Shown: positions 15,708-38,937 of the stretch, in pieces
Position numbering within the stretch: position 1 is the first letter of the stretch
Layout: each line of letters starts with the position of its first letter
Source: Candidatus Micrarchaeia archaeon
GTDB taxonomy: Archaea > Micrarchaeota > Micrarchaeia > Burarchaeales > Fermentimicrarchaeaceae
DNA length: 64,000 nt
Assembly: GCA_038871515.1 (NCBI GenBank)
Contig: JAVZHX010000001.1
Span: 397,638 to 461,637, forward strand
Direction of reading: 5' to 3'
Program-made: the position numbers and the translations under genes
The notes under the pieces: model-generated
What the model saw: only the letters and a program-made list of their open reading frames with translations
Database searches by the model: none
What the model was told of the DNA's origin: nothing

Positions 15708-15784
15708 GTAAAGCTTTTAAATCTGTATGCATATATATACATTAAAAATGCTAGTTATGAAAATCAAATTTGGAGGTGTTTAAC

Positions 15785-17443: not shown

Positions 17444-17450
17444 ACTCCCT

Positions 17451-17735: not shown

Positions 17736-17739
17736 TTTT

Positions 17740-18489
17740 TCACCTCACGTGTTTTAGAAGCTGTTCTGCGAGGGGTTTGTTTGAAGCAACAATTGTTCTT
17801 TCGTAAATGCTCCATGGCTTTCCTTTGAAGTTCAAAACTTCCCCTCCAGCTTCTTTTATTATAATATACGCGGCTGCTGCATCCCACGGAAGAATGTCGT
17901 TATGAATATATGCCTGAACTCTGTCAAGCGCAACGTAGCACAAACCCAAGCTGGCTGAGCCGAGAATACGAACAGCGCGTGTTGCTGGTATGAGTTTTTT
18001 CACTCTTCTTGCAATCAACTTGCTCCTTTTATGCCCTAAGTCGGTTGCAACGATGCAGTTTATCAATTCTTTTTCACTGCCAACTTTCACTCTCCTTCCA
18101 TTCAAGTACGCCCCTTTTCCTTTTTCAGCATAGATAAACTCGTTGTGAAATGGGTCGTGAACAACTCCTAAAATTGGCTGTTTTTTATAAGCAAGCGCAA
18201 GAGAAACTGAGAAGAAAGGTAAGCCTGCTGCGTAGTTCACTGTTCCATCAACTGGGTCAATAATCCAGAGGTAGTCTGAATCTGAGTTGTGCTTGCCTGT
18301 CTCCTCAGCAAGTATTCCGTGTTTTGGGAAGTTTCTTTTTATTTCTCTTATCACAAGTTTCTCCGCTTCAGTGTCTGCGATGGTTAGTATATCCTGCTTT
18401 GATTTGAAAGTTGTTTTCATTTTTCTCCTGAAGTGCTTCATTATAACTCCTCCTGCTTTCTCTGCTGTTGTCAAAGCAAATTCTATCAT
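17740..18489 (-). CDS. suhB: inositol monophosphatase / fructose-1,6-bisphosphatase family protein
   Basis: Contains ILAEETG, WIIDPVDGTVNY and PWDAAAA. Start at ATG 18489. The longer ORF runs into the tRNA gene. Confidence 0.85.
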   Translation of the reverse strand: MIEFALTTAEKAGGVIMKHFRRKMKTTFKSKQDILTIADTEAEKLVIREIKRNFPKHGILAEETGKHNSDSDYLWIIDPVDGTVNYAAGLPFFSVSLALAYKKQPILGVVHDPFHNEFIYAEKGKGAYLNGRRVKVGSEKELINCIVATDLGHKRSKLIARRVKKLIPATRAVRILGSASLGLCYVALDRVQAYIHNDILPWDAAAAYIIIKEAGGEVLNFKGKPWSIYERTIVASNKPLAEQLLKHVR

Positions 18490-18500
18490 TCTTTCACCAG

Positions 18501-18588
18501 CGGGCCCGGAGGGATTCGAACCCTCAAACCAACTGGTCCGAAGCCTTGCGAGTTGCCTAGTCGCGCTATCCAGTTGCGCCACGGGCCC
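18501..18588 (-). tRNA. probable tRNA-Arg(UCG) with a 13-nt non-canonical insertion (18546-18558, about position 29/30)
   Basis: Acceptor GGGCCCG/CGGGCCC, D arm GCGC-AACTGGATA-GCGC, T arm GAGGG-TTCGAAT-CCCTC. Removing AGGCAACTCGCAA yields anticodon arm ACTGG-CTTCGGA-CCAGT. The variable loop would be 6 nt, so the fold is not fully canonical. Confidence 0.6.
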
Positions 18589-18612
18589 CATAAATTTAGG
18601 GAAGTAGGTTAA

Positions 18613-19323
18613 TTAACTCTTTTTCCTTCCAACCAAGTTTATGTAAATTGCTGATTCTTCTTTTCCATTAATTTCAAGCAAGGAGTTGATTTGTTCCTCT
18701 GAGAAAGCGCCTATTGGGACAGAAGCAAGGTTGAGGGAAGTTGCTTCAAGCAGCAAGTTTTGGCTGATGTGCCCTGCTTCAATGTAAATATATCTTTCTC
18801 CTCTTTCACCATATTTTGCTTTTGTTCTTTCAAAAACAGCGGTGAAGATGAAAACTATTGCGGCATCCCTTACTGGTTGTTGGTTGGAAGCAGCGTAAAG
18901 CTTCTTGCTGAAATCCCCTTCTTTTAGAAGCTCAAGTGAGTGCTCTCTTACGTTGTAGTGGTATATTCCCTTGCTCAAATTTTCAACTCTGTTGACAGCT
19001 AGGTATATCTCTATTGGGTAGAGGGCGCCTGCGCTTGGCGCTGTTCTAAATCCTTTTTCTTTGTCTGTAATTCCTTGTGCTGAAAAGAGCAGTTGGGAGA
19101 GCTCACTGAGAGTTATCTCATCGCTTCCAAATTCCCGTATTGTCCTTCTTTCAGCAAGCGCTTTTTCAAGTGTCATCCCTTGGTAGTTTGGTGGGGGGAG
19201 AGGGAACTTCTGAGCTGAGGGGTAGGTTTTGTATTGCTGTTGAGCCGGCATATTCAGCGAGGTATGAAGGAGCAGCGCTAGAATAAGCAGGAAGAGGAGG
19301 GTTATTGCAAGTATTTTTTCCAT
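18613..19323 (-). CDS. SagB-type dehydrogenase / nitroreductase-fold protein with N-terminal signal anchor
   Basis: Contains RRTIREF...LSELSQLLFSAQGIT...APSAGALYPIEIY, plus an N-terminal hydrophobic segment. Confidence 0.7.
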   Translation of the reverse strand: MEKILAITLLFLLILALLLHTSLNMPAQQQYKTYPSAQKFPLPPPNYQGMTLEKALAERRTIREFGSDEITLSELSQLLFSAQGITDKEKGFRTAPSAGALYPIEIYLAVNRVENLSKGIYHYNVREHSLELLKEGDFSKKLYAASNQQPVRDAAIVFIFTAVFERTKAKYGERGERYIYIEAGHISQNLLLEATSLNLASVPIGAFSEEQINSLLEINGKEESAIYINLVGRKKS

Positions 19324-19346
19324 AAGAATATGTTGTTTATTATTAA

Positions 19347-20231
19347 TTATTTAGTGAGAACCCGCGCTGCATCTTTTTCAACAACCACTGTTAATTCTGC
19401 TTGGGAAACAATCCCCTTTCCGGCGTCTTTTAAAACAGGGTATTGTTTCAACGCGCCAGAGAAAACAAGCTCCCTCAAAGCTGCGTGTAAAAGCAGTTTG
19501 GAGTGAAAATCCTTGTAGAGCCATCTTTCAGCAAACGGAAGTGTTTTGAAGTTTTCTTCAACGTAGTTGAGCAACCTTCTTGATTCCCTCATTCTCACTG
19601 GGAGTGGTTCGAGTAATGAGAAAATTTCAACTTGTGGTGCTTCTGAAACCCTTCCCTCTCCGTTGGTTGCAAATGGCTCTATCGCAAGCACCATTCCCTC
19701 CTGAAGTTGATTTGGGTCTTTGTTTGCAATGTTTGGTATTTCTACTCCTGCGTGCAGGTTGTATTCGCCAAGCGCATGCCCAGTTAGGTTTTCTATTGGT
19801 TTGAAGCCAAACCCCTTTATCGCAACCTCAACCTCTGCTCCAATGTCGCCAAGCTTCGCGCCAGCGTGAATTGAGCAGATTGCTGCATCAAGCGCTTTTT
19901 CGGCTGCTTCAACAAGCTTGCCGTTTTCATTTGATAAGTCAACAGTAAGCGCATTATCACCGATAAAACCATCTATATGAACTCCTATGTCAAGCTTGAC
20001 AATGTCTTTCTCGCCAATTGTTGAAGTTGAATCCTTCTCTGGTGTGAAGTGGGCTGCAATTTCGTTTATTGAGATGTTGGGTGGAAAAGCTGGCTTTGCT
20101 CCCTTCTCCGCAATTTTTCTTTCAGCAGTTTCTGCTATTTCAAGCAGTTTTGCACCTGGTTTGATGAGCTGCTTGCACTCCTGTAGAACTTCAAAAGCAA
20201 TCCTTCCTGCTTTCTCGTATTTTTCAATCAT
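19347..20231 (-). CDS. map: methionine aminopeptidase, type II
   Basis: Contains FPPNISINEIAAHFTP, VKLDIGVHIDGFIGD and GHALGEYNLHAG. Confidence 0.9.
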   Translation of the reverse strand: MIEKYEKAGRIAFEVLQECKQLIKPGAKLLEIAETAERKIAEKGAKPAFPPNISINEIAAHFTPEKDSTSTIGEKDIVKLDIGVHIDGFIGDNALTVDLSNENGKLVEAAEKALDAAICSIHAGAKLGDIGAEVEVAIKGFGFKPIENLTGHALGEYNLHAGVEIPNIANKDPNQLQEGMVLAIEPFATNGEGRVSEAPQVEIFSLLEPLPVRMRESRRLLNYVEENFKTLPFAERWLYKDFHSKLLLHAALRELVFSGALKQYPVLKDAGKGIVSQAELTVVVEKDAARVLTK

Positions 20232-20872
20232 TTTCTCAACTCCTGAAGGATGGGGATGAGCTCCTTTATAGCAGTTATATTGTAGTCCGCGTTGTTTTTC
20301 TTTTTTGAGAGAAGGACAGTGGTTATACCAGCTTCTTTTGCTGGTTCAATGTCTTTCTCAACGCTATCCCCAACCATCACAACATCATGTGGTTGCATTC
20401 TCAGTTTTTTCAAAATAGAAGAGTAGAATTTTTTTGTTTTTTTCGGAGTGACAAAAACATAATGGAATAGGTTATGGAGTCCTAGGCGTATTAGCTTGTC
20501 CCATTGCTTTATCGCCCTTCCCTCAGAAGCAACGCAGATTGTGTAGCCCTGCTCGCGGAGTTGAATAACTGTTTTCGGCACGTCTGGGAAAGGGAAGATG
20601 CTGGCTTTTGTTTGGTGGTATGCGACAACTCCTGCTGCAATTATTTTTGGTTCTGATTTCTTTCCAAGCTCGCGCAGCAGAGCGTTGAAGTGTTTTGGGT
20701 AATTCGGTCCGTATTTGTTTATTATTTTCAGAAGTTTTCTGTAAGCAGCTTCCTCATCAACATCCAAGCCAGCGGCGATCATTGCGTTTAATGCATTCTT
20801 TCTAGCAAGCTCAGCAAATTCAGAGGAGGGAAAAAGTGTGTTGTCAATGTCAAATAATATTGCTTTAACCAT
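20228..20872 (-). CDS. HAD-superfamily hydrolase
   Basis: The ATG at 20872 gives MVKAILFDIDNTL. The C-terminal motif is MVGDSVEKDIEPAKEAG. Overlaps the polB stop by 8 nt. Confidence 0.8.
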   Translation of the reverse strand: MVKAILFDIDNTLFPSSEFAELARKNALNAMIAAGLDVDEEAAYRKLLKIINKYGPNYPKHFNALLRELGKKSEPKIIAAGVVAYHQTKASIFPFPDVPKTVIQLREQGYTICVASEGRAIKQWDKLIRLGLHNLFHYVFVTPKKTKKFYSSILKKLRMQPHDVVMVGDSVEKDIEPAKEAGITTVLLSKKKNNADYNITAIKELIPILQELRK

Positions 20873-23249
20873 GCCAGTCACCCAGAACGGATTGCTTTCC
20901 TCCAAATACCAAATCCTCCTTCTTAACTCCAAGCTCTCGGAGAATTTTTAGAACGGCTGGTATAACCTGATGTTCAATATAGTAAACTGCATCATAGTCT
21001 TTTGCAAGCTCTGCTGGAACTGCTTTTTCAGAGATGCTTGCTCCTTTCTTTGTGATTACGTAGCCAACAAGCGAGCCCTCCTCAACATGTATTCCTGCGC
21101 TGAGCGCTTTCTTCGCAGCCTCAAGCTCAGGGGAGGTAACCTCATATTTTCCGATGCTTTTCTTTAATTGAGTGTATATAACAAGCTCGTCAAGCGGTGT
21201 TCTTCCTTCCCTCAGCTCATTTATTTTATCCCTCACTATTTTCAGGGCTTTCTCCTTGCTTCCTTCCTTGAGAATTGCCTCAAGCACCTGCTGCTGAACT
21301 TTTTTTGCAACTCCCGCCCAGTCCCTTCTCACAAGCTCAAAGCCACGTATTTTTATCCTTCCATCCTCTCCAATTAATGCGTATTTCTTCTTCGCTCCTT
21401 TTGCCTCTGATTTCTTGCTAACGAAAACCCCGCGGGAATAGAACCCTTCAAGCTCAAGCTCCATTTTCTCAGGAAGCTCATTGTTTATTTTTTTCACAAA
21501 TTCAAGCGCATCCTTCTTTGTTTTCTCTCCAAGCAACAGCATTAAAGAATCTGTATCGCCGTATAGAACTTTGAAGCCAGCTTCCTCTGCTTTTCTCATT
21601 GTTTCCTGTATATAGTGCCTTCCCCAAGCAGTTGTGCTCTCGCCGGCTTCTTTGGAATACCAGCGGGAGCGTGGGTAGAGCAGATAGCCATAGAAGGAGT
21701 TTGCAGTTATTTTCAGTGCCTGTTGCTGTGCGTCAAGCTGGATGTATTCCTCTGTCCCTGGCTTCATGGACTTCATCTTTTTCTTAATCTCTGCTCTTTT
21801 TTGCAGAAGCTCCTCAAGCACTTTTGGGATGAGCCCCTTCTTCTTTTTGCAGAAGCGGTGCCCAACTGGTGAAAGATAGGAGTCCTTTCCACAGCAGGAG
21901 CAGTTCAGAGTGAATGGGTCAACGTTGTGCGAGATGATTATAGATGGATATAGGGAGCGGAAGTCAAAAACAGCCAAATTTTCATAGATGCCTGGCTCAG
22001 GCATTTTCACAAACGCTCCAACTGCTGGCGAGGCAGCCCTTGCAGCAATCTCCTCCTCCTTTGGCTGGTTTGGCACAATGATGTTCTCCCAGTGGGCCCT
22101 GTTGATGAGGAGCTGCTCAACAATTGTTCCTGTTGATGAGCCGCAGATGTCAAAGAGGGGAACTTTGGATAGTTTGGAAATTTCAAACTCCATTGGGAGG
22201 AGCTGTTCCGCAAGCTCCTTAACTGCAACAGCATCATTTAATGAATACTCGGCAAGCTCCCCACATTTTTTTTCATCATCCCAGTACTTCCAGATTTCAA
22301 TTTTTGGGATTGATTTTTTGGTTTTTCCAGTAAGCTCGGAGTAAACTTCTGAGAGTGTGAATTGGAATGTTTTTAATGCTCCGATGGTTGCGAGGAAGCG
22401 GATAATGTGAAATAAATCTATGTGAACTCTTCCTGTTATTTTTGCTTTTGTTATTAACCCTCTTCTGTGCAACCTGAAGCTTGAGCCATCCCTCCCAAGC
22501 GAGAGTTGTGTTTTCAAAACAGCTGCCCTCTCCTTCAAGTATGGTAAATCAAACTGGCTGGAGTTGTAGCCGATGAGAATTTCGGTGTTTGTTTCCTTTA
22601 CCAGCTGGCAGAATTTCTCAATCATTTCCTTCTCATCCTTGCAGTGAGTGATGAATGGTTTGTTTATTCTTTTTGTTGTAAAGACACCTGAGGAGGAGTT
22701 GGCGTAGCTTATCATCAGTATTGGGTCCTTGGTGGGGCGAGGGGCTCCTTGTGGGTTGTAGGTTTCGATGTCAAATGCAAGTGTGTTGAATTTCAAGGGA
22801 GTTTCCTGTGTTTTTGTTATTCTTTTTAACTCCTTTCCTTCTCTCTCAAATTTTATTGTTGTTAGTGGGGTGAGCCCTTTGTCTATTATGTATCTTCTTG
22901 TGAATGGGATGTTGTGCTCGTAGGTTGTGCCGAGTTTTTTAACTTCCTCGCGTATAACTGGCACGTGTCTTGGGTGGTTGCAGATTATCTTGAGCAGCTC
23001 CTTTTCCTTCCCAAGAAGAATTTTTCTAACTTTTTCAACTCTTTTTGGCTTGATTGTTTCGTTTTTTTCCTCAACTACGAGCTGTTCAATAGTTTTTTTT
23101 GTTGAGTCAATTTCATCAGCATCCAAATAGAAATACGGCTCAAAGTTGCTGTCGTATATCCTGAAAAATCTTTTTCCTTTGAAAACTAGTGAGATAACCG
23201 GTTTGTTGCCCTTTGTCTTGTAGGTTACGTCAATGAGGATGCCTCTCAT
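20865..23249 (-). CDS. polB: family B DNA polymerase
   Basis: 794 aa. Exo motifs FDIET and YNSSQFDLPYL, polymerase motifs DFRSLYPSII, KITANSFYGY and YGDTDS. No intein. Confidence 0.95.
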   Translation of the reverse strand: MRGILIDVTYKTKGNKPVISLVFKGKRFFRIYDSNFEPYFYLDADEIDSTKKTIEQLVVEEKNETIKPKRVEKVRKILLGKEKELLKIICNHPRHVPVIREEVKKLGTTYEHNIPFTRRYIIDKGLTPLTTIKFEREGKELKRITKTQETPLKFNTLAFDIETYNPQGAPRPTKDPILMISYANSSSGVFTTKRINKPFITHCKDEKEMIEKFCQLVKETNTEILIGYNSSQFDLPYLKERAAVLKTQLSLGRDGSSFRLHRRGLITKAKITGRVHIDLFHIIRFLATIGALKTFQFTLSEVYSELTGKTKKSIPKIEIWKYWDDEKKCGELAEYSLNDAVAVKELAEQLLPMEFEISKLSKVPLFDICGSSTGTIVEQLLINRAHWENIIVPNQPKEEEIAARAASPAVGAFVKMPEPGIYENLAVFDFRSLYPSIIISHNVDPFTLNCSCCGKDSYLSPVGHRFCKKKKGLIPKVLEELLQKRAEIKKKMKSMKPGTEEYIQLDAQQQALKITANSFYGYLLYPRSRWYSKEAGESTTAWGRHYIQETMRKAEEAGFKVLYGDTDSLMLLLGEKTKKDALEFVKKINNELPEKMELELEGFYSRGVFVSKKSEAKGAKKKYALIGEDGRIKIRGFELVRRDWAGVAKKVQQQVLEAILKEGSKEKALKIVRDKINELREGRTPLDELVIYTQLKKSIGKYEVTSPELEAAKKALSAGIHVEEGSLVGYVITKKGASISEKAVPAELAKDYDAVYYIEHQVIPAVLKILRELGVKKEDLVFGGKQSVLGDWHG

Positions 23250-23287
23250 GTTATTGATTTTTTAATCTAACCAATTAAAAACGTATC

Positions 23288-23938
23288 ATGAGGGGAAGGT
23301 TGAATGCTGCAAGGAAAGCGCTGGAGTATGTGAAAGAGGGGATGGTTGTTGGTTTGGGGACGGGCAGAACTGCGGAGTTATTTGTAAAGTTGTTGGGGAG
23401 GAGTGGGAGGAAAGTTATAGGGGTTCCGACTTCAAAAAGAAGCGAGAGGGTTGCTAGAAAGGTTGGGTTGGTTGTGAAGGAGTTGAACGAAGTGGAAAGG
23501 ATTGATTTGGCGGTTGATGGGGCGGATCAGGTTGATAAAAAATTGAATTTGATTAAAGGGTATGGTGGCGCTCTGTTCAGGGAGAAGGTTGTTGATTATG
23601 CGGCAAAAAAGTTTTTGGTTGCTGTTGATGAGAGCAAGTTGAGGGAGGAGCTGGGGGGGTGGGTGCCGTTGGAGGTTGCTCCTTTTGCAGTTGAGCAGGT
23701 GAGAAGGGAGTTGAGAAGAAGGGGAGTTGAGTCAAGGGTGAGGAGGAAGGGGAGGAGAGTGTTTGTGACTGATAATGGTAATTTGATTGTTGATGCTTAT
23801 TTTGAAAAAGTGAAAAAACCGGAGAAGGTGCATGAGATGTTGAAGGGAATCCCTGGGGTGATTGAAACTGGTTTGTTTTTTGGAAAGAAGTGGAAGGTGG
23901 TTGTGGGAAGTGAGAGGGGGGCGAGAGTTTTAGGGTGA
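23288..23938 (+). CDS. rpiA: ribose 5-phosphate isomerase A
   Basis: Contains VVGLGTGRTA, AVDGADQVD and KGYGGALFREK. Confidence 0.85.
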   Translation: MRGRLNAARKALEYVKEGMVVGLGTGRTAELFVKLLGRSGRKVIGVPTSKRSERVARKVGLVVKELNEVERIDLAVDGADQVDKKLNLIKGYGGALFREKVVDYAAKKFLVAVDESKLREELGGWVPLEVAPFAVEQVRRELRRRGVESRVRRKGRRVFVTDNGNLIVDAYFEKVKKPEKVHEMLKGIPGVIETGLFFGKKWKVVVGSERGARVLG

Positions 23939-23942
23939 GGTT

Positions 23943-24443
23943 ATGAGAAAACTTCCTGAGAGTTTAAGAGGTGAGTTGAGAAGGCCGTTTGGGAGAGTTG
24001 TGAACACTGAACAGCTTATCTCTGAGTTGAAAGGAAAAGATGTGTTTCTTGTTTCTGTTGGTGATGAGTGCTCGTATGAGTTGATAAAAAATAATGTGAA
24101 GCCGGATGTTGTGATTTATGATTTGAAAATAAAGAGGAGGGATGTGATTGGTAAAGTAAGGGAGGTGTTGGATGAGTTTGATGAAAAGCCAACAATAGTT
24201 CACAATCCCCCTGGTGTGATAATGGATGAGTTGATTGAAACTGTGAAGGAGATGGTTGAAAGAAGGAGTGGTAAGATGCTTGTGAAAGGGGAGGAGGATT
24301 TGGCTGCGCTTGTTGTGATGATGTATGCTCCAAATGGCGCGGTGGTTGTTTATGGACAGCCAGATGAGGGGGCGGTTCTTGTTGAGATGAATGATGAGGT
24401 AAGGGAGAGAGCGGTAAGGGCGTATGAAAGTATGGAGGAGTGA
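23943..24443 (+). CDS. GTP-dependent dephospho-CoA kinase (archaeal DUF359 family)
   Basis: Contains L..ELRRPFG, SVGDECSYELI, PDVVIYDLKIKR and GEEDLAAL, the pattern of the archaeal DPCK family. Confidence 0.75.
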   Translation: MRKLPESLRGELRRPFGRVVNTEQLISELKGKDVFLVSVGDECSYELIKNNVKPDVVIYDLKIKRRDVIGKVREVLDEFDEKPTIVHNPPGVIMDELIETVKEMVERRSGKMLVKGEEDLAALVVMMYAPNGAVVVYGQPDEGAVLVEMNDEVRERAVRAYESMEE

Positions 24444-24445
24444 GT

Positions 24446-25582
24446 ATGGAGGAGCTGAGGGTTATTAATTTCCTAGATGCGTTCATCGCAAATGCTCTGT
24501 CTGTGCTGATTCCACTTATTCTTATTGCGAGAGGAGTTGATGTTGTTGGGGTTGGTTTTGTTGTTTCTATTTCTCCGGTTGTTTTTGTTGTTTCAAGAAG
24601 TGTTTTTGCTGCTTTGTCAGATCAGAGGGGAGTGAAGGAGTTTTTTGTTCTGAATGGGTTTATGAATGTGGTTGCGGTTGCTGTTTATATGGTTGCGAAT
24701 ACGCCGCTGATGTTTTCTGTTGGAAAGATGTTTGAGGGGGTGAGGAATGGGGCGATATGGGCGGTGAATAGAACTGCGGTGATTTATAAGAAAGGGAAGG
24801 AGAGAGCTGCTGAGGAGATGTCAAAAATTCAAGCAATCAGGACGGCTTCTGCTGCGTTTGGAATTGTGGTGGTTGGTTTATTGTTGCAGAGTTATTCGTT
24901 TGATGTGGCGCTGCTCTTCTTCATTGTACTGAGTTTTGTGCTTCTTGGGGTGAGTTTCTTAACTCAGGGAAGGAGGAAGTCAAAAATTAAGTTTAAGAGG
25001 TTGTTTGAGCAGCTTGATTTCAGAAGCAAAAGTGAAGTTTTGAAGAGGACGAGCCTTGTGCTGGTTTTTCAGTCGGTTGCAACAAACACGTTGCTTTCCT
25101 TGGTTTTTCCTCTTTTTTTGAAGGAGATGGAGTGTGATTATTGGTTGATTGGTTTTGTGATTGCGGTGTATTACTTGGTGAGCGCTGTTGTTGCATTCCT
25201 GCTTTCAAAAAAGAATGTGATATCTCTTTTTGTTTATTTGTGGTTGGGTGCTTTCCTTTTCTTTTTCGGGGCGGTTGTTACTCCGTTTCTGTGGGGAGCG
25301 TGGGCGATTCCTTTTATTCTGTTGATGGGGGTTGGGGATGGAATGAGTATGCCTGTTTGGGAGGTGTTGGTTTTCAATTCATTAAGAAGCAAGAATGATG
25401 TTTCAAGTGATATCGCGCTTGTCCACACACCGCCAAATCTTTTGAATTCGGTTGGTGTTATCGTTGCTGGTTTGTTGATTAAGGTGTTTGGTTATTGGGT
25501 TGTTTTTGTGTTGTGTGGTGTTTTGTTTGTTCTATTTGCTTACTTTTCATCAAAAATCTTGAAGGGTTGTTGGGAGGTTTAA
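24446..25582 (+). CDS. MFS-type transporter
   Basis: About 12 hydrophobic segments with a basic loop in the middle (RRKSKIKFKR). The start could be GTG 24440. Confidence 0.65.
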   Translation: MEELRVINFLDAFIANALSVLIPLILIARGVDVVGVGFVVSISPVVFVVSRSVFAALSDQRGVKEFFVLNGFMNVVAVAVYMVANTPLMFSVGKMFEGVRNGAIWAVNRTAVIYKKGKERAAEEMSKIQAIRTASAAFGIVVVGLLLQSYSFDVALLFFIVLSFVLLGVSFLTQGRRKSKIKFKRLFEQLDFRSKSEVLKRTSLVLVFQSVATNTLLSLVFPLFLKEMECDYWLIGFVIAVYYLVSAVVAFLLSKKNVISLFVYLWLGAFLFFFGAVVTPFLWGAWAIPFILLMGVGDGMSMPVWEVLVFNSLRSKNDVSSDIALVHTPPNLLNSVGVIVAGLLIKVFGYWVVFVLCGVLFVLFAYFSSKILKGCWEV

Positions 25583-25962
25583 GGTTTGTCTGAGTTTTTG
25601 TATTTTTTGTAAAGCTCATTAACTGTTCTTTCATCAATCCTTTTATCAAAATAAGCATGAGGTAGCAATGCGCCGCTGAATGTTTTTGGTATGTGGATGA
25701 GCTCGTGAATTAAAACCTTATCTTTCTCTTCTTCAGGAAGAGAGTCAAAATGCTCTGAGAGAACTTCAATTATGTAGTAGGTTCTGATGTCTAACGCTTT
25801 CTGCCAAATTTTTGGGAGGTTCCAGATGCGGGCGTATGCCTTTGCTTCGGAGCCTTTGGAGCGCATGCAGATTATCCGGAGGGAATTGATGTGTTCTAAA
25901 TTAAGTGTTTGGATTATTTTGTTTACTCTTTCCTGAATGTCTGGAGCGAGCTCAAATTGCAT
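25579..25962 (-). CDS. putative zinc metallopeptidase (HExxH)
   Basis: 127 aa with LIHELIHIP (HExxH). Resembles the small predicted archaeal metallopeptidase family. Confidence 0.55.
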   Translation of the reverse strand: MQFELAPDIQERVNKIIQTLNLEHINSLRIICMRSKGSEAKAYARIWNLPKIWQKALDIRTYYIIEVLSEHFDSLPEEEKDKVLIHELIHIPKTFSGALLPHAYFDKRIDERTVNELYKKYKNSDKP

Positions 25963-25997
25963 GGTTTGTTTTTAGTATGGGGTATAATAAGGTTGTT

Positions 25998-26015
25998 TTG
26001 TAACCATGGTTACAA
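25998..26015. promoter_or_regulatory. 18-bp perfect palindrome TTGTAACCATGGTTACAA
   Basis: Read directly. The core GTAACCATGGTTAC is repeated 160 bp downstream. Confidence 0.9.
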
Positions 26016-26157
26016 AGAAAGGGGGACCCCTTACTTCCACTATTCTACTATTTTTGTGTTGTTTGGTGTTGTTTTTTGTTTTTCTCGTCTGAGTTTTTGT
26101 TAGAAAAATAGGGGAAGTGTGGTTGGAATAGGGGTGGAGTGAAGGTATATATATCTG

Positions 26158-26177
26158 AATGTAACCATGGTTACATT
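26158..26177. promoter_or_regulatory. 20-bp perfect palindrome AATGTAACCATGGTTACATT
   Basis: Read directly. It abuts the ATG at 26178. Confidence 0.9.
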
Positions 26178-26420
26178 ATGTTGTTATATCTATATGATTT
26201 GAAAATAAAAGGGAAAAAACCTTACAACAACCTTAAAAGAAGGTTCTACTACCAACTCAAAAACTCTCCCCTCTCCACAAAACCATGGAAAACAAAATCA
26301 GCAATATTAGTGGAAGATTACCTAGAAGGAGAAGCAGACGCGTTTTTCAAAAAATTTGAGGGTTTTGTGGAGGTATACAAAGCAAAAATTGAATCAATTG
26401 AACAACTTTCAAAACCATAA
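26178..26420 (+). CDS. small hypothetical protein
   Basis: 80 aa from ATG 26178 (MLLYLYDLKIKGKKPYNNLKRRFYYQLK...). The annotated ORF start at 26139 would place the palindrome inside the coding region. Confidence 0.45.
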   Translation: MLLYLYDLKIKGKKPYNNLKRRFYYQLKNSPLSTKPWKTKSAILVEDYLEGEADAFFKKFEGFVEVYKAKIESIEQLSKP

Positions 26421-26479
26421 TACTGGAAGTGCACCCCCACTCAAAAAGAATTAATACCCCAACAAACCAATTCCTACTC

Positions 26480-27313
26480 ATGTACGTCACAAAAAACTAC
26501 CTTAAAACACATCTCAGGAAAAGACTTGTCACCTCCCACAAAGGGCAGAACGGCCGTTTATTGGTTGTGGGAGGAAGCCGTCTCTACTTCGGCTCACCTA
26601 TTCTCGTCTCGCTCGCAGCGTTCAGGACAGGGATTGATTTAGTTTACCTTCTCACCCCAGAATACATCTCAAAACACCTCGCCCCCCAATACCCAGACCT
26701 GATAGTATGGGGTTATGAAGGGGAATACCTAAACGAGAAAGCACTGCCTCTCTTTGAGGAGCTGAAAACAAAAACAGATGCAATGGTTATCGGAAACGGG
26801 CTTACAAAACAACCTGGCGTGCTGAAAACAACAACTAAACTACTTTCAGAATGGGATAAACCCCTTGTGATTGACGCAGATGCTGTTCAACCAAATTTGA
26901 AAACAAACTCCAAACAACTCCTCTACACCCCCCACTCAATTGAACTCTCCCGTCTGACAGGAGTTAAAACACCCGAAAATTTAAAGGAAAGGATAAAATT
27001 GGTTGAAAAAACAGCAAGGGAGCTCTCCGCAACCATCTTGTTGAAAGGAAGGCCGGATATCATATCTGATGGAAAACAGCTTATGTTCAACCACATCCAC
27101 AACCCAGGGATGACTGTTGGAGGAACTGGGGACACCCTCGCAGGAATCGCAGGCGCACTCCTCTCGCAGAGACACACCCCATTTGAATCCGCATGCATGG
27201 CTGCTTACATAAATGGTTTGGCTGGCAACTTAGCAATGAAAAAATACGGCTACTCCTTACTCGCATCCGATTTAATAAATGAGATACCAACAATTATGAA
27301 AAAATTTCAATAA
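26480..27313 (+). CDS. nnrD: ADP-dependent NAD(P)H-hydrate dehydratase (YjeF C-terminal/carbohydrate kinase family)
   Basis: Contains HKGQNGRLLVVGGS, VIDADA and VGGTGDTLAGIAGALL. Confidence 0.8.
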   Translation: MYVTKNYLKTHLRKRLVTSHKGQNGRLLVVGGSRLYFGSPILVSLAAFRTGIDLVYLLTPEYISKHLAPQYPDLIVWGYEGEYLNEKALPLFEELKTKTDAMVIGNGLTKQPGVLKTTTKLLSEWDKPLVIDADAVQPNLKTNSKQLLYTPHSIELSRLTGVKTPENLKERIKLVEKTARELSATILLKGRPDIISDGKQLMFNHIHNPGMTVGGTGDTLAGIAGALLSQRHTPFESACMAAYINGLAGNLAMKKYGYSLLASDLINEIPTIMKKFQ

Positions 27314-27315
27314 AC

Positions 27316-27948
27316 TTAGAAAATCTCCACAACTCCACTCACATCACTGAAAACAAAATCCGGCTCCTCTTTTAACAACCACTCCAACTTATGCGTTCCG
27401 TTACAAACACAACCAGTTATCATACCAGCAGCTCTCCCAGCCTGCACATCCTCCACCCTATCCCCAACATAAATACACTCGTCCGCTCTCCTTCTAACCT
27501 TTTCAAGAGCAACCAACAAACTTTTTGGAGATGGCTTTCTCTCCTCCACATCCTCCCTCACAACAACAACCGAAAAATACTTCCCAATTCCAAACCTCTC
27601 CAAATCCTCCTTTATTCTACTTCCCCTTCCATCACTAACCAACCCAACACCAACCCCCAGCAAACTCAGCTTCTCAAGAGTTGGAACTGTTTGCGGAAAC
27701 AATTTAATTTCCTTCCTCATCTTCTCCCAATACTCCCACCACACCTTCTCAACTCTCTCCACCTCTCTCTCCTCCACCCCCATTTTCAAATACATATTTT
27801 TATGATTCATTGAAAACTCCCTTCTGAAAAACTCCAAACTCATCTCCCCATAACCCAACTCAGAAAAGGTTCTTCGGAAACTTTCGTATGTTATATGCAG
27901 AGAATCCAACAACGTTCCATCATAATCAAAAAACACAAACTTCAGCAT
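27316..27948 (-). CDS. HAD-superfamily hydrolase (phosphoglycolate phosphatase-like)
   Basis: Contains MLKFVFFDYDGTLLDS and YVGDRVEDVQAGRAAG. Confidence 0.8.
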   Translation of the reverse strand: MLKFVFFDYDGTLLDSLHITYESFRRTFSELGYGEMSLEFFRREFSMNHKNMYLKMGVEEREVERVEKVWWEYWEKMRKEIKLFPQTVPTLEKLSLLGVGVGLVSDGRGSRIKEDLERFGIGKYFSVVVVREDVEERKPSPKSLLVALEKVRRRADECIYVGDRVEDVQAGRAAGMITGCVCNGTHKLEWLLKEEPDFVFSDVSGVVEIF

Positions 27949-28004
27949 AATATTCAAACATCACTCTTTAATAACTTCTTTTCTCCAATAAAATTGGTGA
28001 ACTT

Positions 28005-28226
28005 ATGAAGTACAAAGTTGAGATAACCTACAAACCAGGCGTGCTAGACCCTGAAGGAAAATCAACCCTTGATGCATTGAAAACACTCGGCTTTAACGTT
28101 TCCAACGTCCAGAGCATGAAAGCATACATAATTGAATGCAACTACGATGAGAAAAAAATTGATGAGATGTGCAGGAAACTTCTCTCCAACCCAATAATAC
28201 ATAACTATTCAATTCAAAAACTATGA
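28005..28226 (+). CDS. purS: phosphoribosylformylglycinamidine synthase subunit PurS
   Basis: 73 aa with KPGVLDPEGKSTLDALKTLGF. Sits immediately upstream of purL with overlapping stop/start. Confidence 0.85.
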   Translation: MKYKVEITYKPGVLDPEGKSTLDALKTLGFNVSNVQSMKAYIIECNYDEKKIDEMCRKLLSNPIIHNYSIQKL

Positions 28227-30589
28227 GGTGGCGCATGCAGCACAAAGCAGATTTTCCATTCACCCTTTACTTCATAAACCTACGTGACGCTTCAGACGAG
28301 GATTTGAGAAGAATAAACTCCGAAAGAAACCTCTCGCTTTCTTTGGAGGAAATGAGAAGGATAAAGGAGCACTACAAAAAACTTAACAGGGATGCAACAG
28401 ACGTTGAACTGGAGATGATCGCCCAAATCTGGTCCGAGCACTGCTGCCACAAAACTCTCCGCGGAAACTTCATCGATTCAAAAGGAAAAGTAGTTGCAAG
28501 AAAACTTCTGAAAAGCACAATAATGAAAGCAACAGAAAAGCTCAAACTTCCCTGGTGCCTGCTTGTTTTCAAAGATAACGCAGGGATAGTTGACTTTGAT
28601 GGAAAGCACGCGCTTGCTTTCAAAGTTGAAACTCACAACCACCCCTCCGCGCTTGAACCATTTGGAGGAGCATCAACAGGAGTTGGCGGCGTCATCCGCG
28701 ACATTTTGGGCGTTTGGGCTGACCCAATTGCAAACACAGACGTCCTCTGCTTCGCTCCTCTCAACTTTCCGGAAAGCAAACTTCCAAAAGGAGTTAAATC
28801 GCCCCGCTACCTATACAACGGCGTTATCGCTGGCATAGGCTCATACGGAAACAACATGGGAATCCCAACAGTAAACGGCTCAATTCACTTTGATGAAAGC
28901 TACTTGGGAAACCCGCTTGTTTACTGCGGCTGTGTTGGGTTGTTACCTAAAAACAAATTTATCAAAAACACCAAGCCAGGCGACTGCATTCTACTTGTTG
29001 GGGGCAGAACTGGAAAAGACGGAATTCACGGAGTCACCTTTGCATCCGCCGAGCTTTCTGAAACTTCTGAAGAGGTTTCTCGCTCAGCAGTTCAGATAGG
29101 CGACCCAATTGAAGAGGAGAAGCTGAAAAGAGCAATCCTCCGCGTGAGGGATGAGGGGCTTGCAACCGCAATAACCGATTTAGGTGGAGGAGGGGTTTCC
29201 TGCGCTGTCAGCGAGATGGCTGAGCGCTCCGGATGCGGTGCAACCGTTGAGCTTGACAGGGTTCCTTTAAAATACCCAATGAATACCCCCTGGGAGATAT
29301 GGCTCTCCGAATCACAGGAGAGAATGCTTCTCTCAATTCCAGAAAGAAACCTAAAAAGAACCCTTGAAATTTTTGAGGATGAAGACGTTGAGGCAACCGT
29401 TATTGGAAGGTTCAACAACACAAAACAAATTGTCGTTCTCTACAAAGACAAGCCAGTTGCCAATCTCTCAACAAACTTCCTTTACAACCTTCCCTATGCA
29501 ACCACCAAAGTAAAAAAACCAAATCAAAAACTCAGGGAGCCAAACTTCAAACAACCAAAACAACTTGGCAAAATACTACTGCAACTGCTTTCTCTGCCAA
29601 ACACCGCAAGCAAACAATCTGTCATTCACACCTATGACCATGAGGTGAAAGGACACACAGTAATAAAACCACTCCAGGGAGCTTTTCTTGACGGGCCGGG
29701 TGATGCGGCAGTGATAAAACCACTCCCCACCTCCTTCAAAGGATTTGCGCTTTCAAATGGGTTCAACCCAAACTATGGAAAGATAGACTGCTACTGGATG
29801 GCTGCCTCTGCAATTGATGAAGCAGTAAGAAACAACATCGCAGTTGGGGGAAGGAGAATCGCATTGCTTGATAACTTCTGCTGGGGCTCCCCAAAGAAAC
29901 CACAGCTTGCCTACCAACTTCTTGAGGCATGCCGAGCGTGCAGGGATGTTGCGCTTGAGCTCAAAACTCCCTTCATCTCAGGAAAGGACAGCTTATACAA
30001 CGAAACAAATGGAAAGCCAATCACCCCATCACTGCTCATCTCAGCGCTTGGGATCGTGCCTGACGTGAGAAAAGCGGTTACGATGGATGCAAAGCAGCCA
30101 GGCAGCTACATTTACCTGATTGGGGAAACTCACAAGGAACTTGGAGGCTCTTCCTATTACTCCATTTTCAAAAAACTCGGTGCTTCTGTGCCAAAGCTCA
30201 ACCCAAAAAAAGCAAGAAGAATTTTCAACTCACTCACAAAAGCAATTGACAAACAACTCCTCCTCTCCTGCCACGATTTATCTGAGGGTGGTTTGGGAGT
30301 TGCTGCAGCAGAGATGTCCTTCGCAGGCAACATTGGAATGGAAATCAACCTGCAACAACTCAACTCCAAACTGCGAGATGACTACCTCCTCTTCTCAGAA
30401 TCAAACTCCCGCTTCCTTGTAGAAGTTTCATCAAGCAACAGAAACAGATTTGAGAAACTTATGAGAGGAATTCCGTATTTCAGAATTGGAAAAACAACCA
30501 ACTCGGATGAATTCACCGTGATTGGGAATGATGTTTTAATTTCAGAAAAACTTGCCACCTTAAGAAAGGCATGGCAAACTCCGCTGTGA
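28223..30589 (+). CDS. purL: phosphoribosylformylglycinamidine synthase II
   Basis: Contains WSEHCCHKT, VETHNHPSALEPFGGASTGVGGVIRD and GKDSLYNE. Confidence 0.95.
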   Translation: MRWRMQHKADFPFTLYFINLRDASDEDLRRINSERNLSLSLEEMRRIKEHYKKLNRDATDVELEMIAQIWSEHCCHKTLRGNFIDSKGKVVARKLLKSTIMKATEKLKLPWCLLVFKDNAGIVDFDGKHALAFKVETHNHPSALEPFGGASTGVGGVIRDILGVWADPIANTDVLCFAPLNFPESKLPKGVKSPRYLYNGVIAGIGSYGNNMGIPTVNGSIHFDESYLGNPLVYCGCVGLLPKNKFIKNTKPGDCILLVGGRTGKDGIHGVTFASAELSETSEEVSRSAVQIGDPIEEEKLKRAILRVRDEGLATAITDLGGGGVSCAVSEMAERSGCGATVELDRVPLKYPMNTPWEIWLSESQERMLLSIPERNLKRTLEIFEDEDVEATVIGRFNNTKQIVVLYKDKPVANLSTNFLYNLPYATTKVKKPNQKLREPNFKQPKQLGKILLQLLSLPNTASKQSVIHTYDHEVKGHTVIKPLQGAFLDGPGDAAVIKPLPTSFKGFALSNGFNPNYGKIDCYWMAASAIDEAVRNNIAVGGRRIALLDNFCWGSPKKPQLAYQLLEACRACRDVALELKTPFISGKDSLYNETNGKPITPSLLISALGIVPDVRKAVTMDAKQPGSYIYLIGETHKELGGSSYYSIFKKLGASVPKLNPKKARRIFNSLTKAIDKQLLLSCHDLSEGGLGVAAAEMSFAGNIGMEINLQQLNSKLRDDYLLFSESNSRFLVEVSSSNRNRFEKLMRGIPYFRIGKTTNSDEFTVIGNDVLISEKLATLRKAWQTPL

Positions 30590-30593
30590 TTAT

Positions 30594-31397
30594 ATGAGAA
30601 TATGCATAATGAGAGTTGCTGGAACAAACCGCGATTATGACGTATACGAAGTTCTAACTTACCTAGGCGCATCCCCAGATGTTGTTCACATGAATGAATT
30701 CACCAGAGGAAGGAAAAAACTGAGTGACTACGATGCATTCATCTTCCCAGGAGGCTTCTCCTACGGAGACAGAATACGCTCAGGCGCAATCTGGGCAAAG
30801 CAGCTCATCTACAAACTTTCAGCTGACTTCAGAAAAATTGCTGAGGAAGGAACACCAATACTCGGAATATGCAACGGGATGCAGGTGCTTGTTGAGGCTG
30901 GTTTGATACCTGGCTTGAATGGAATAAGCGAATACCCAGAAGCAGCAATGGCAGTCAATGCGTCATCTAAATTTGAGTGCAGGTGGGTTTATTTAAAAAA
31001 CTACTCAAGGGGAAACTGCCTATTCACAAGGGAAATACCAAGAAACACAGTGATAAGAACACCTGTTGCCCACGGAGAAGGACGCTTCCTTCTTCCAAAA
31101 GAAAAGGAGAAAGCAATACTCCGTAAACTTGAGAGAAACGATCAGATTGTTTTCCGCTACTGCGATGAGAAAGGCAACCCAGCCAAAGGGAAATACCCGC
31201 TCAACCCAAACGGCTCCTTCTCAGACATAGCTGGAGTTTGCAACCCTCAGGGCAACGTTTTGGCTTTCATGCCTCACGCAGAGGATGCGTGCTTCTTCTG
31301 GCAGCACCCAGATTGGACAAGGAGGAAACTTAAGTTTGAGACAGACGGAATTCTCCTCTTCAAAAATTTAGTATCTTTCCTCAAACACAAAAAATAA
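30594..31397 (+). CDS. purQ: phosphoribosylformylglycinamidine synthase I (glutamine amidotransferase)
   Basis: Contains FPGGFSYGD, GICNGMQVL and MPHAE. Confidence 0.9.
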   Translation: MRICIMRVAGTNRDYDVYEVLTYLGASPDVVHMNEFTRGRKKLSDYDAFIFPGGFSYGDRIRSGAIWAKQLIYKLSADFRKIAEEGTPILGICNGMQVLVEAGLIPGLNGISEYPEAAMAVNASSKFECRWVYLKNYSRGNCLFTREIPRNTVIRTPVAHGEGRFLLPKEKEKAILRKLERNDQIVFRYCDEKGNPAKGKYPLNPNGSFSDIAGVCNPQGNVLAFMPHAEDACFFWQHPDWTRRKLKFETDGILLFKNLVSFLKHKK

Positions 31398-31435
31398 AAA
31401 AACATTGCAATTATTATTTAATTACTAATTAAGAG

Positions 31436-32809
31436 GTGGTTCTCTTGCCCAAAATACAGGAGATACCCTCTCTTAAAGAATGGGAAAGAGTTGGCTCTCA
31501 CAGCCACATCAAAGGACTTGGAATACAAAATGGTGAAGTCCTTCGTATTGCCTCAGGGCTTGTGGGACAGGTTGAAGCAAGAAAGGCAGCCAGCATAATT
31601 GTTGAGTTAGTGAGAAAAGGAAGGTTTGCCGGCAGAGCAATACTTATGGCAGGACCCATGGGAACTGGTAAAACTGCGCTTGCACTTGCAATCGCAAAGG
31701 AGCTTGGAAGGGATGTGCCATTCGTTCAGATATTTGGCTCTGAAATTTACTCCTCCGAAATCAAGAAAACAGAATTCCTGATGAGAGCTCTCAGAAGAGC
31801 TATTGGAGTCAGAATTCACGAGATGCGCACAATTTATGAAGGCGAGGTAACCTACCTTGACTTTGACATGGTGCCTCATCCATACAACCCATACCAAAAA
31901 ATCCCCAAAAGCGCAACAATAAAACTCAAAACAAAGGACGAGGAGAGGCAATTCAAGGTTGACTCCTCATTTGCCCAAAGTATAATTCAGAATGGAGTTG
32001 AAATTCACGATGTTATTCAGATAGACTCAGAAACAGCCAGAATAGCAGTTATTGGCAAAAGCAAGGATTACAAACCAGATGAAAAGGAAAAAGTTGACTT
32101 AACAAAACAACAGATTGTTGAAGTTCCAAAAGGCAAAGTTCAAAAAGAAAAGGAATTCATCTACACAGTTACCCTTAATGATTTGGACATGGCGCGCGCA
32201 AAGAGAGGAAGCCTCTTCTTCTCCTTTTTCGGTGGAGGGAAGGAGGAGGAGCTCAGCGAGGAGGACAGGGCAGCTGTTGACGAGGAGGTTAAAGCGCTGG
32301 TGAATGAGAAAACAGCAGAGATAATACCGGGAGTTCTATTCATAGACGAAACTCACATGCTTGACGTTGAAGCTTTCTCCTTCCTCAACAGAGCAATTGA
32401 ATCTGAGCTTGCGCCAATAATCATTCTCGCAACAAACAGAGGGATAACAAAAATAAGAGGCACAGAGCTTGAATCACCTCACGGAATTCCAAGAGATATG
32501 CTGGATAGAATGCTGATTATAAACACCTCTCCATACTCAAAAGAGGAAGTCGCCGAGATAATAAAAATAAGATGCAGGGAGGAGAAAGTTCAGCTGAGCA
32601 ACGATGCATTTGAGTATCTAACAAAGATTGGCGTGGAGAAAAGTTTAAGGTATGCAACTCAGCTTCTCGCTCCCGCTTCAGAGCTTGCAGAGAAGGATAA
32701 GAAGGAGACAATAGAGAAGAAGCACATCGAGGTTGCTGAGAAGCTTTTTGTTGACGTTGAAAAATCCATCGAGCACGTTAAAAAGTTCGAGAAGAGCTTT
32801 ATGGCATAA
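31436..32809 (+). CDS. RuvB-like (TIP49/Pontin-Reptin type) AAA+ ATPase
   Basis: HSHIKGLG, Walker A GPMGTGKT, a roughly 220-aa insertion, then Walker B GVLFIDETHMLD and ATNRG. This is the TIP49 domain order. Confidence 0.85.
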   Translation: MVLLPKIQEIPSLKEWERVGSHSHIKGLGIQNGEVLRIASGLVGQVEARKAASIIVELVRKGRFAGRAILMAGPMGTGKTALALAIAKELGRDVPFVQIFGSEIYSSEIKKTEFLMRALRRAIGVRIHEMRTIYEGEVTYLDFDMVPHPYNPYQKIPKSATIKLKTKDEERQFKVDSSFAQSIIQNGVEIHDVIQIDSETARIAVIGKSKDYKPDEKEKVDLTKQQIVEVPKGKVQKEKEFIYTVTLNDLDMARAKRGSLFFSFFGGGKEEELSEEDRAAVDEEVKALVNEKTAEIIPGVLFIDETHMLDVEAFSFLNRAIESELAPIIILATNRGITKIRGTELESPHGIPRDMLDRMLIINTSPYSKEEVAEIIKIRCREEKVQLSNDAFEYLTKIGVEKSLRYATQLLAPASELAEKDKKETIEKKHIEVAEKLFVDVEKSIEHVKKFEKSFMA

Positions 32810-32849
32810 GAAATTAAAACCTCTCTGACGTAATATAACCGCTGGTTCT

Positions 32850-33434
32850 ATGGCTAACGACGGCAAGATTATCGTATCTGTTCACTGCGATGTTATCTGG
32901 CAGGCTGCCCACGTGAAGTTTGTGAGAAGGAGAGGGAGAAGGTATTACGAGGGCAATCTGGATAACGTGGTGTGCGTTGCAGCCGTCCTCCGCTCAGTTA
33001 TGCCACGCGTGAGGGACAGAAAAGTAAAATTTTACTTCACAAATGCAGAGGAAACAACAATGAAAGGAGCAAGAAAAGTTATGAGAAGGGAGGGGAAAGC
33101 CCTCTACGTTGTTGTTGACGTAACCCAAGCAGCACGCAGCTCCGATGTTAATATTGAGTGGATGCAGCACATTAACAGAAAAGCACTAAAAAAGGTTCTC
33201 ACAAGAATCCCAAACCTGAAAGTTGGCTTCAAGACAGGCCACCCAGATGAAACAGCCATTTACGGAACAAAATACCCAACCTTCTCAATCACTCTCCCAC
33301 TGCAGGGAAACATGCACGGCAAATCCAAAGTTTCCTTCTGGAAGGTGAAGCGCTTCGGCTTATCCCTCGTTGAAATTCTAAGAAGGATACGAATGAACTA
33401 CGATAGAATTTGTGAGTTTCAGAAATCAGTATAG
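32850..33434 (+). CDS. hypothetical protein, possibly a minimal M28/M42-like metallopeptidase fold
   Basis: The ordered residues HCD...NLDN...NAEE...VVDV...H resemble co-catalytic metallopeptidase ligands. Weak. Confidence 0.3.
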   Translation: MANDGKIIVSVHCDVIWQAAHVKFVRRRGRRYYEGNLDNVVCVAAVLRSVMPRVRDRKVKFYFTNAEETTMKGARKVMRREGKALYVVVDVTQAARSSDVNIEWMQHINRKALKKVLTRIPNLKVGFKTGHPDETAIYGTKYPTFSITLPLQGNMHGKSKVSFWKVKRFGLSLVEILRRIRMNYDRICEFQKSV

Positions 33435-35783: not shown

Positions 35784-35819
35784 GAAAAAATTTTGTAAAT
35801 CAGTTGATTATAAGCTTTC

Positions 35820-36380: not shown

Positions 36381-36464
36381 AAATTACTTGCTCATTTCAA
36401 TTATTTAAACTCGCTTTCGCAATTATTCGAAACCTTTATAAATAAAAATAGAAAAAGTGAAACC

Positions 36465-37109: not shown

Positions 37110-37110
37110 A

Positions 37111-38927: not shown

Positions 38928-38937
38928 ACGTGATTCT

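Follow-up and report, generated by a model that had tools for sequence, protein, structure and literature searches.

The window analyzed here is a 64,000-nt stretch of contig JAVZHX010000001.1 (541,696 bp in all) from the Candidatus Micrarchaeia archaeon assembly GCA_038871515.1. Near position 26,200, a gene for a protein of 80 amino acids lies downstream of genes for a major facilitator superfamily (MFS) transporter and a putative metallopeptidase, and upstream of Nnr, HAD and purSLQ genes. The small gene is preceded by a T-rich spacer, a TATA-like box and a perfect palindrome, and it is bracketed by inverted repeats that resemble archaeal origin recognition boxes (ORBs; Table 1). At this point the strand composition of the entire window changes sign. 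It represents a fixed landmark of chromosome replication in Micrarchaeota, carried by a conserved module of small gene and inverted repeats, and this module, a tiny gene flanked by inverted origin-box-like repeats, is previously undescribed. The landmark would be either a replication terminus or an origin, and each would be new for archaea.

Three cumulative skews computed over the window reach their maxima at 26213 (G-C), 26200 (T-A) and 26201 ((G+T)-(A+C)), and a two-state likelihood analysis of the whole window places the change point at 26202, with a 2-logL support interval of 26183-26217 and a log-likelihood gain of 546. An earlier note on this DNA had proposed a sign change near 26.2 kb, and all four estimates indeed fall within 26200-26213. 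Left of 26150 the GC skew is +0.217 and the keto (G+T) fraction 0.577; to the right the values are -0.205 and 0.445. The skew is of equal magnitude on the two arms, and their G+C content is alike. Pooled by arm and gene strand, the coding-strand GC and TA skews at third codon positions (GC3/TA3) amount to +0.67/+0.27 for plus-strand and -0.09/-0.19 for minus-strand genes on the left arm, and to -0.13/-0.17 and +0.51/+0.11, respectively, on the right arm. This pattern implies a strand-specific component of about ±0.35 in GC3 and ±0.2 in TA3 whose sign is reversed at the site. Gene orientation is thus not the cause of the flip; the claim that the plus strand is G+T-rich on the left and the inverse on the right, whichever strand the genes occupy, holds for total GC skew and for GC3/TA3 alike. 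The GC3 difference between strands, about 0.7 in the window, is far above the usual archaeal level, and archaeal cumulative skew amplitudes are on average about 3.4 times below bacterial ones (PMC12999951). Strong strand-specific skew occurs in several Micrarchaeota orders (the window and loci L002, L082, L085, L110 and L156), and skew is weak in L049, L072 and L116-L125.

For comparison, genomic contexts of the small gene were gathered from NCBI, ENA, JGI and Logan assemblies (loci numbered with the prefix L), and GC skews were calculated over flanks of 5 or 10 kb. The closest named relative, judged by 80% identity to the PurL protein of the window, is Ca. Fermentimicrarchaeum limneticum Sv326 (CP058998.1, complete, 1,178,830 bp), in which the module is located at about 942.2 kb; the other closest PurL relatives are several Micrarchaeota metagenome-assembled genomes, and an identical stretch is present on a 74.9-kb Logan contig from SRR27170999. 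Sv326 (L002) and L004 share the gene order of the window (MFS, metallopeptidase, 80-aa gene, Nnr, HAD, purSLQ), and their cumulative skew maxima fall in the same intergenic region. Neighboring genes vary between orders, and even with an entirely different set of neighbors the small gene coincides with a change of GC skew from plus to minus. Left and right GC skews are +0.30 and -0.26 in L082 (CG1_02_47_40), +0.19 and -0.20 in L085 (Ca. Gugararchaeum), +0.21 and -0.15 in L110 (a 743-kb contig), +0.22 and -0.18 in L156 (CG10), and +0.14 and -0.16 in L158 (Anstonellales). When genes are separated by strand, their third-position skew reverses at the module in 15 loci. Neither in the window nor in 14 related loci does the switch depend on gene orientation. 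In more distant Micrarchaeia and other archaeal PurL loci (L049, L066 and L072), the module is absent and skew is weak.

A single endpoint of an inversion would produce an equally sharp sign change in one 64-kb window, and the earlier note had listed a large inversion breakpoint as a third option. Under that explanation, the switch would stem from a recent rearrangement, such as a large inversion whose breakpoint it marks, or from a junction of DNAs of different origin, and would not be a replication landmark. The same switch, however, occurs at the orthologous intergenic region of relatives with only about 80% PurL identity, it recurs at the same module in other orders with different neighbors, and the two arms agree in skew magnitude and G+C content. 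Conservation of the switch at the module across orders rules out an inversion breakpoint or compositional seam, to which we assign next to no probability.

Among 18 non-redundant loci that carry the repeats, 15, from several orders, have the switch within a few hundred base pairs of the small gene; the proposal that the change of polarity within 100-200 bp in the window denotes a replication landmark is supported by this recurrence at the same small gene. Association with the repeats was assessed on 25 non-redundant loci that have at least 1.5 kb on each side. A switch was present in 15/18 loci with the repeat element versus 0/7 without it (Fisher p = 2.5e-4), and the three exceptions, with element and without switch, come from lineages whose G+C content is 53-54% and whose skew at the locus is weak. 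Where the palindrome was kept and the element is missing (L099, L107/108, L112/113, L123-125 and L127), no switch is seen, and it is therefore the repeat pair, not the palindrome, that marks the landmark.

The element is asymmetric, 16-20 bp long, with the consensus TAGTGGAAGTATGGGG, often followed by further G/C-run sequence. Its left copy, on the minus strand, precedes the ATG by 49-206 nt (by 422 nt in L002 owing to an insertion) and has 0-2 mismatches in most relatives and 4 in the most divergent ones (L085, L106 and L110). The right copy lies on the plus strand at the stop codon or up to about 60 nt past it in most loci (about 260 nt in L154), and matches with 0-3 mismatches at or after the stop codon occur in L082, L085, L133, L137, L156 and others. 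The G-runs of the pair point outward and the enclosed segment measures about 400 bp. In repeat-bearing loci, the inverted pair (left minus, right plus) brackets the change point, an arrangement consistent with the layout of a fork trap. Fermentimicrarchaeales, including the window, carry one to three extra plus-strand copies just upstream of the TATA box, such that minus-strand and plus-strand copies flank a T-rich stretch of 66-90 bp; in other orders the sole plus-strand copy is past the gene, and the pair consequently encloses promoter and gene. The earlier note had recognized much of this anatomy: the T-rich 66-bp stretch is present, as are two perfect palindromes, both slightly longer than described. 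Of its inverted TGGAAGTA(A)GGGGT-like elements, the minus-strand copy stands and the plus-strand copies are present but weaker; clearer plus-strand copies are found at the same place in L002, L090 and L132.

Table 1. Features of the module and its surroundings; positions refer to the window unless a locus is named.
Feature	Position	Strand	Remarks
Left arm	1..26200	+	G+T-rich for either gene strand; GC skew +0.22, keto fraction 0.58
Right arm	26201..64000	+	C+A-rich; GC skew -0.20, keto fraction 0.44
Left neighbor gene	25579..25962	-	127-aa PF18894 putative metallopeptidase, outside the conserved module; syntenic in L002 and L004
Palindrome copy 1	25997..26016	both	TTTGTAACCATGGTTACAAA; perfect 20-mer upstream of the metallopeptidase TATA box
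Left inverted repeat (IR-L)	26021..26042	-	5'-TAGTGGAAGTAAGGGGTCCCCC; ORB-like, G-run outermost
T-rich spacer	26042..26107	+	59% T, 73% A+T; length and sequence vary among lineages
Degenerate repeat copies	26109..26139	+	TAGGGGAAGTGTGGTT; GTTGGAATAGGGGTGGAG; facing IR-L
TATA-like box of small gene	26146..26155	+	Putative promoter element, read from the sequence
Palindrome copy 2	26158..26177	both	AATGTAACCATGGTTACATT; perfect 20-mer between TATA box and ATG of the small gene
Small gene	26178..26420	+	80 aa; family known only from Micrarchaeota; ferredoxin-like (Cas2-like) predicted fold
Right inverted repeat (IR-R)	26421..26442	+	TACTGGAAGTGCACCCCCACTC; degenerate here, starts directly after the stop codon
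tRNA-Met, L082	~4770-4850
tRNA-Met, L105	9744-9819
tRNA-Met, L139	5536-5612
tRNA-Met, L154	9581-9655
tRNA-Met, L159	9712-9788

The repeat shares AGTGGAA and GGGGT with the archaeal ORB consensus CTTCCAGTGGAAACGAAAGGGGT (PMC4153887), with a spacer 2 nt shorter and a shuffle p of about 0.009; for other ORBs, the shuffle p is 0.07 (Methanomassiliicoccales) and 0.22 (P. furiosus ORB1). The TTCC half of the ORB dyad is missing. No canonical ORB core (TTCCAGTGGAAA, at most one mismatch) was found in or beside the module; module-bearing loci have just three such matches, in L105 and L113, and these lack a G-string and lie 1.4-4.8 kb away from the gene. The inverted G-run elements, whose layout the earlier note likened loosely to archaeal ORBs and unwinding elements, proved to matter most, being both conserved and linked to the switch. 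Ten exact matches to the repeat in IMG/VR viral contigs are attributed to chance, since they are single copies with neither a second repeat nor a palindrome nearby.

A natural rearrangement suggests which part of the module is oriented. Over ±10 kb, the 12 genes that flank the module in L156 stand in exact mirror order to those in L159 (on the same contig as L133), and yet the small gene (10001-10237) has the same orientation in both locus frames. These mirrored flanks around an unmirrored gene indicate that the segment of about 400 bp between the repeats was inverted in place during evolution. The repeats kept their orientation relative to the flanks where the enclosed gene flipped, which is in keeping with a function for which the direction of the repeats matters and that of the gene does not. 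We also considered a fixed gene orientation relative to the skew pattern and discarded it as an empty claim, since reverse complementing leaves a convergent pattern as it was. Among 44 whole metagenome contigs, five (L089, L091, L109, L114 and L134) begin in the 60 nt that precede the ATG, versus 0.9 expected, and four more end inside the small gene (L111, L132, L139 and L143); population-level inversion or spacer hypervariability may account for these breaks. An extra G+C-rich insert of about 250-300 bp separates left repeat and promoter in L002 (3950-4260) and is missing from the window and L004; Rfam searches of the intergenic regions gave no match, and none at gathering score for this insert. 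One sublineage has an (AAT)n microsatellite in the spacer upstream of the TATA box (L004, about 3838-3880; also L095 and L097).

The small protein belongs to a family of 186 database proteins of 76-81 aa, and all members that carry an organism name are from Micrarchaeota. None of 25 members searched gave a Pfam match at E <=10, and a search of PDB sequences gave none. Invariant residues include D7, K20, R22-F-Y-Y25, K40-S41, E50, D54 and F56-F57. The protein model, predicted with confidence (pLDDT 90.8), has a ferredoxin-like fold, with four strands and two main helices assigned by DSSP, and the best PDB fold matches are Cas2 proteins (2i0x, 4es1 and 4qr0), all of them weak (TM 0.5-0.6, E about 0.01; for the top match 2i0x, probability 0.99, TM 0.56 and E = 8e-3). 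The resemblance to Cas2 extends to an invariant Asp at the end of the first strand. Sequence matches in Pfam and PDB are lacking, however, the fold scores are weak and ferredoxin-like folds are common. No cas1 or other cas genes were found among the Pfam-annotated neighbors of the module, a survey that did not extend to CRISPR arrays. The 50 best PDB fold matches include neither Tus nor RTP, and a search of IMG/VR viral contigs did not recover the small gene. Presumably, the protein is a small dimeric DNA-binding autoregulator. L099 encodes a homolog (6754-6996, 77% identity) with the palindrome kept and no flanking repeats, in a uniformly C-rich region without a switch, which may be a second or relocated copy.

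The palindrome of the family is conserved as an 18-bp core, ATGTAAC-N4-GTTACAT, and its placement suggests that it is probably the operator of the small gene. In most family members, 0-14 nt separate the end of the GTAAC-N4-GTTAC palindrome from the ATG; in L154 it lies about 170 nt upstream. In the window, the 14-bp core has only two sites in 64 kb even with two mismatches allowed, compared with 0.09 expected. The additional copy, 161 bp away at 25997 in the promoter of the metallopeptidase gene, is shared with the closely related contig L086 and is not found in L002, L004 or more distant relatives; L158 has an extra copy at -5547, in the promoter of a gene for a 1302-aa protein.

The lead candidate of the earlier note for a terminus was a dif site, i.e., the GTAACCATGGTTAC palindrome would serve XerA in chromosome dimer resolution. 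In 9 of 16 loci, the likelihood change point is about 30 nt or less away from the palindrome. Written as 11-6-11, it reads TCTGAATGTAA CCATGG TTACATTATGT and shares the TAA-N6-TTA inner arms and 13/28 positions with dif of P. abyssi (ATTGGATATAA TCGGCC TTATATCTAAA). As in the Xer/dif systems of bacteria, Thermococcales and Methanosphaera stadtmanae, it occurs at the cumulative maximum without an adjacent xerA, and archaeal dif sites are known from skew summits away from xerA (PMC2958812). Against a dif site, conservation covers 18 instead of 28 bp: arm pairing of at least 8/11 in the 11-6-11 frame was found in only 2 of 15 loci (the window and L137), and the outer arm positions are neither conserved nor complementary. 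The palindrome is positioned like an operator between TATA box and ATG, copies in promoters of other genes mean that the site is not single, and palindrome-bearing loci without flanking repeats lack the switch. In addition, the CCATGG center is itself palindromic and would give a recombinase no directionality. A phmmer search with E. coli XerD found no tyrosine recombinase within 10 kb of the module. We consider this role, a refinement of the terminus reading, improbable; the short core, the promoter copies and the switch-less loci speak against it.

Whether the landmark is a terminus or an origin depends on the weight given to polarity and to anatomy. G exceeds C and T exceeds A on the same strand, and the G+T-rich strands converge on the site, where the window and 15 related loci have their cumulative maximum. 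Such a combined excess on one strand fits the signature expected of C-to-T deamination on the lagging-strand template. Taken with the rule that leading strands are G+T-rich, the convergence points to a terminus. A cumulative maximum corresponds to the terminus in bacteria, Thermococcales and M. stadtmanae, with dif at the skew summit (PMC2958812), and in the DPANN archaeon Forterrea the skew-predicted origin is next to cdc6 (PMC5905446). Flanking transcription directed inward would be co-directional with converging forks, and the searches described below found no initiator gene near the module. We accordingly favor a replication terminus, with a probability of roughly one half (0.48).

Several observations weigh against a terminus. 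To our knowledge, no site-specific terminus has been described in archaea. The repeat anatomy is origin-like, with an ORB-like inverted pair around an A+T-rich stretch, and the 11-6-11 arm test of 15 loci revealed no convincing dif site at the module. The orc1/cdc6 gene of the lineage and the opposite skew switch were located in no genome of the lineage. Genes for PolB (window lineage and L110), the large subunit of RFC (L085, L110, L133/L159 and L156), PCNA (L158) and Lhr or XPB helicases are found no more than 10 kb from the module, and five lineage groups have such genes there. Core informational genes surround the module with well-conserved synteny across orders, and such surroundings are more typical of origin-proximal than of terminus-proximal regions. 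Nor does the polarity rule hold in all archaea: a mapped origin of H. volcanii, Ori3, lies at a local maximum of the cumulative GC skew of third-position and non-coding sites (PMC12999951), and GC3 skew does not correlate with gene strand bias across archaeal chromosomes (PMC12999951).

Many of these points are what an origin would explain. The TAGTGGAAGTATGGGG elements would then be lineage-specific ORBs for an Orc1/Cdc6 encoded elsewhere, unwinding would start from the A+T-rich promoter and spacer between them (26042..26107 in the window is a candidate unwinding element only under this explanation), the small protein would be an origin-associated regulator, and mutational polarity would be inverted, with C+A-rich leading strands. 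Origins with inverted ORBs in Sulfolobus, Pyrococcus and Methanomassiliicoccales resemble the module in their 16-20-bp elements, with AGTGGAA followed by a GGGGT G-string, in the inverted arrangement around an A+T-rich region, in the exact match to the skew switch and in the replication genes nearby. The G-runs at the outer ends, the copies around a T-rich 66-90 bp in Fermentimicrarchaeales, the tracking of the switch by repeats rather than palindrome and the great sharpness of the switch, as expected of an initiation site, agree with initiation here, as do the informational flanks with synteny across orders. The H. volcanii origin at a GC3 and non-coding maximum is a precedent for the polarity (PMC12999951). 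The skew polarity at the module is nevertheless opposite to all strongly skewed archaea and bacteria with a known origin, including the related DPANN archaeon Forterrea, and the joint excess of G over C and T over A fits an exposed lagging-strand template. Compared with known origins, the TTCC half-dyad is missing, the spacer is 2 nt short and neither the module nor its immediate surroundings contain a canonical core. A gene, not a bare unwinding element, is what the repeats enclose in most orders; no orc1/cdc6 or other initiator gene was found within 10 kb in the lineages searched; and tRNA-Met and flanking genes would be head-on to outgoing forks. An origin is in our view a real possibility, at less than even odds, and the remaining probability goes to other or mixed explanations. 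Polarity favors the terminus of the earlier note; the anatomy speaks for an origin.

Searches for an initiator bear on both alternatives. In the window, an Orc1 profile and phmmer with E. coli XerD matched no six-frame open reading frame (ORF) of at least 60 aa, and Pfam searches of about 30 of the roughly 71 window ORFs gave neither orc1/cdc6 nor a tyrosine recombinase, in agreement with the earlier observation that the window lacks orc1/cdc6 and xerA. An hmmsearch with the Orc1 profile gave nothing above background within 10 kb of the module in the loci gathered before L154-L159, and Pfam lists of neighbors in L082-L085 and L154-L159 contain no Orc1/Cdc6. In archaea, the initiator gene is not always found beside the origin. 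With A. pernix ORC1 as query, all of the 120 matches listed are from Thermoprotei, and a search of Orc1 representatives yielded 150 clusters, among which the 20 named ones are from Thermoplasmata, Thermoplasmatota and Korarchaeota, and none from Micrarchaeota.

If the site is a terminus, two replication forks would converge and fuse within the segment of about 400 bp bounded by the two inverted asymmetric elements with outward G-runs, and as forks kept fusing there over evolutionary time, the leading strand on either side, directed at the site, would have become G+T-rich. The small protein, of about 80 aa and with a predicted Cas2-like fold, probably binds the GTAAC-N4-GTTAC palindrome in its own promoter and would thereby regulate itself. 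The inverted elements, in their opposite orientations, would serve as fork barriers or as sites of fusion, with either the small protein or an Orc1-type winged-helix protein as binding partner. We infer fork direction from the leading-strand G+T rule, and likewise infer fork arrest at the elements and the protein-DNA pairing.

The layout is reminiscent of the Tus/Ter and RTP fork traps, in which asymmetric inverted sites bracket the convergence of G+T-rich strands. In B. subtilis rtp with IRI/IRII and E. coli tus with TerB, a small gene has an operator-like palindrome beside inverted polar sites. The Micrarchaeota module differs in that the best fold matches of its protein are Cas2 and other ferredoxin-like proteins. 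We know of no terminator system in any archaeon, and Sulfolobus forks are reported to fuse stochastically. A dedicated sequence-specific termination system, with inverted ORB-like sites as polar MCM barriers and with the small protein or an Orc1 paralog recruited to them as a self-regulating terminator, appears unlikely to us. Such a Micrarchaeota fork trap would have originated independently of Tus and RTP, and would be the first known in Archaea.

Both outcomes, terminus and origin, depart from known archaeal replication. In archaea, replication is usually considered to end in diffuse zones where forks collide. The clade described here, of uncultivated DPANN archaea, exhibits orientation-independent skew of bacterial strength that flips within about 200 bp at a gene-linked module. 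As a terminus, the site would be the first archaeal candidate for termination at a defined sequence, and would come with a candidate protein and candidate Ter-like sites. As an origin, it would be of a type that lacks a neighboring initiator gene and shows inverted mutational polarity, and would change skew-based origin prediction in archaeal metagenome-assembled genomes. As a sequence marker of a replication landmark, the module offers a means of orienting and checking Micrarchaeota assemblies and of estimating growth from coverage profiles.

In the ancestral gene order around the module, the genes for Trm56, TFIIE-alpha and tRNA-Met occupy one flank and a PRC-barrel gene the opposite flank, and all of them are directed toward the module. 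In five loci (Table 1), tRNA-Met lies about 70-210 bp outside the left repeat, is transcribed toward the module and is preceded by Trm56 and TFIIE-alpha; the window has the latter two genes 36 kb off, at 62561-63699 on the minus strand. Gene direction in general is uninformative: a hand tally gave about 132 genes on the G-rich strand versus 106 (about 55%, not significant), and 136.8 kb of coding sequence run toward the site versus 127.8 kb away from it in 16 strong-skew loci.

Elsewhere in the window, a gene for a TIP49/RuvB-like AAA+ ATPase (31436-32809, plus strand) follows directly downstream of purQ; tblastn detected none in L002, L003 and L004, all of which have a gap at that position. 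Two paralogous AAA_14/DUF4143 ATPase genes (39637-40947 and 45723-46991, plus strand) are accompanied by two ORFs of 179 and 196 aa (43018-43557 and 47004-47594, minus strand). Relatives hold one copy of the latter, and since both ORFs match this same single locus, they are probably paralogous; the two pairs together suggest a local duplication. Finally, an AbiEii toxin/AbiEi antitoxin pair of the type IV toxin-antitoxin or abortive-infection kind is encoded at 57834-59223 on the minus strand and adjoins a gene for a KaiC-like ATPase (57069-57791).

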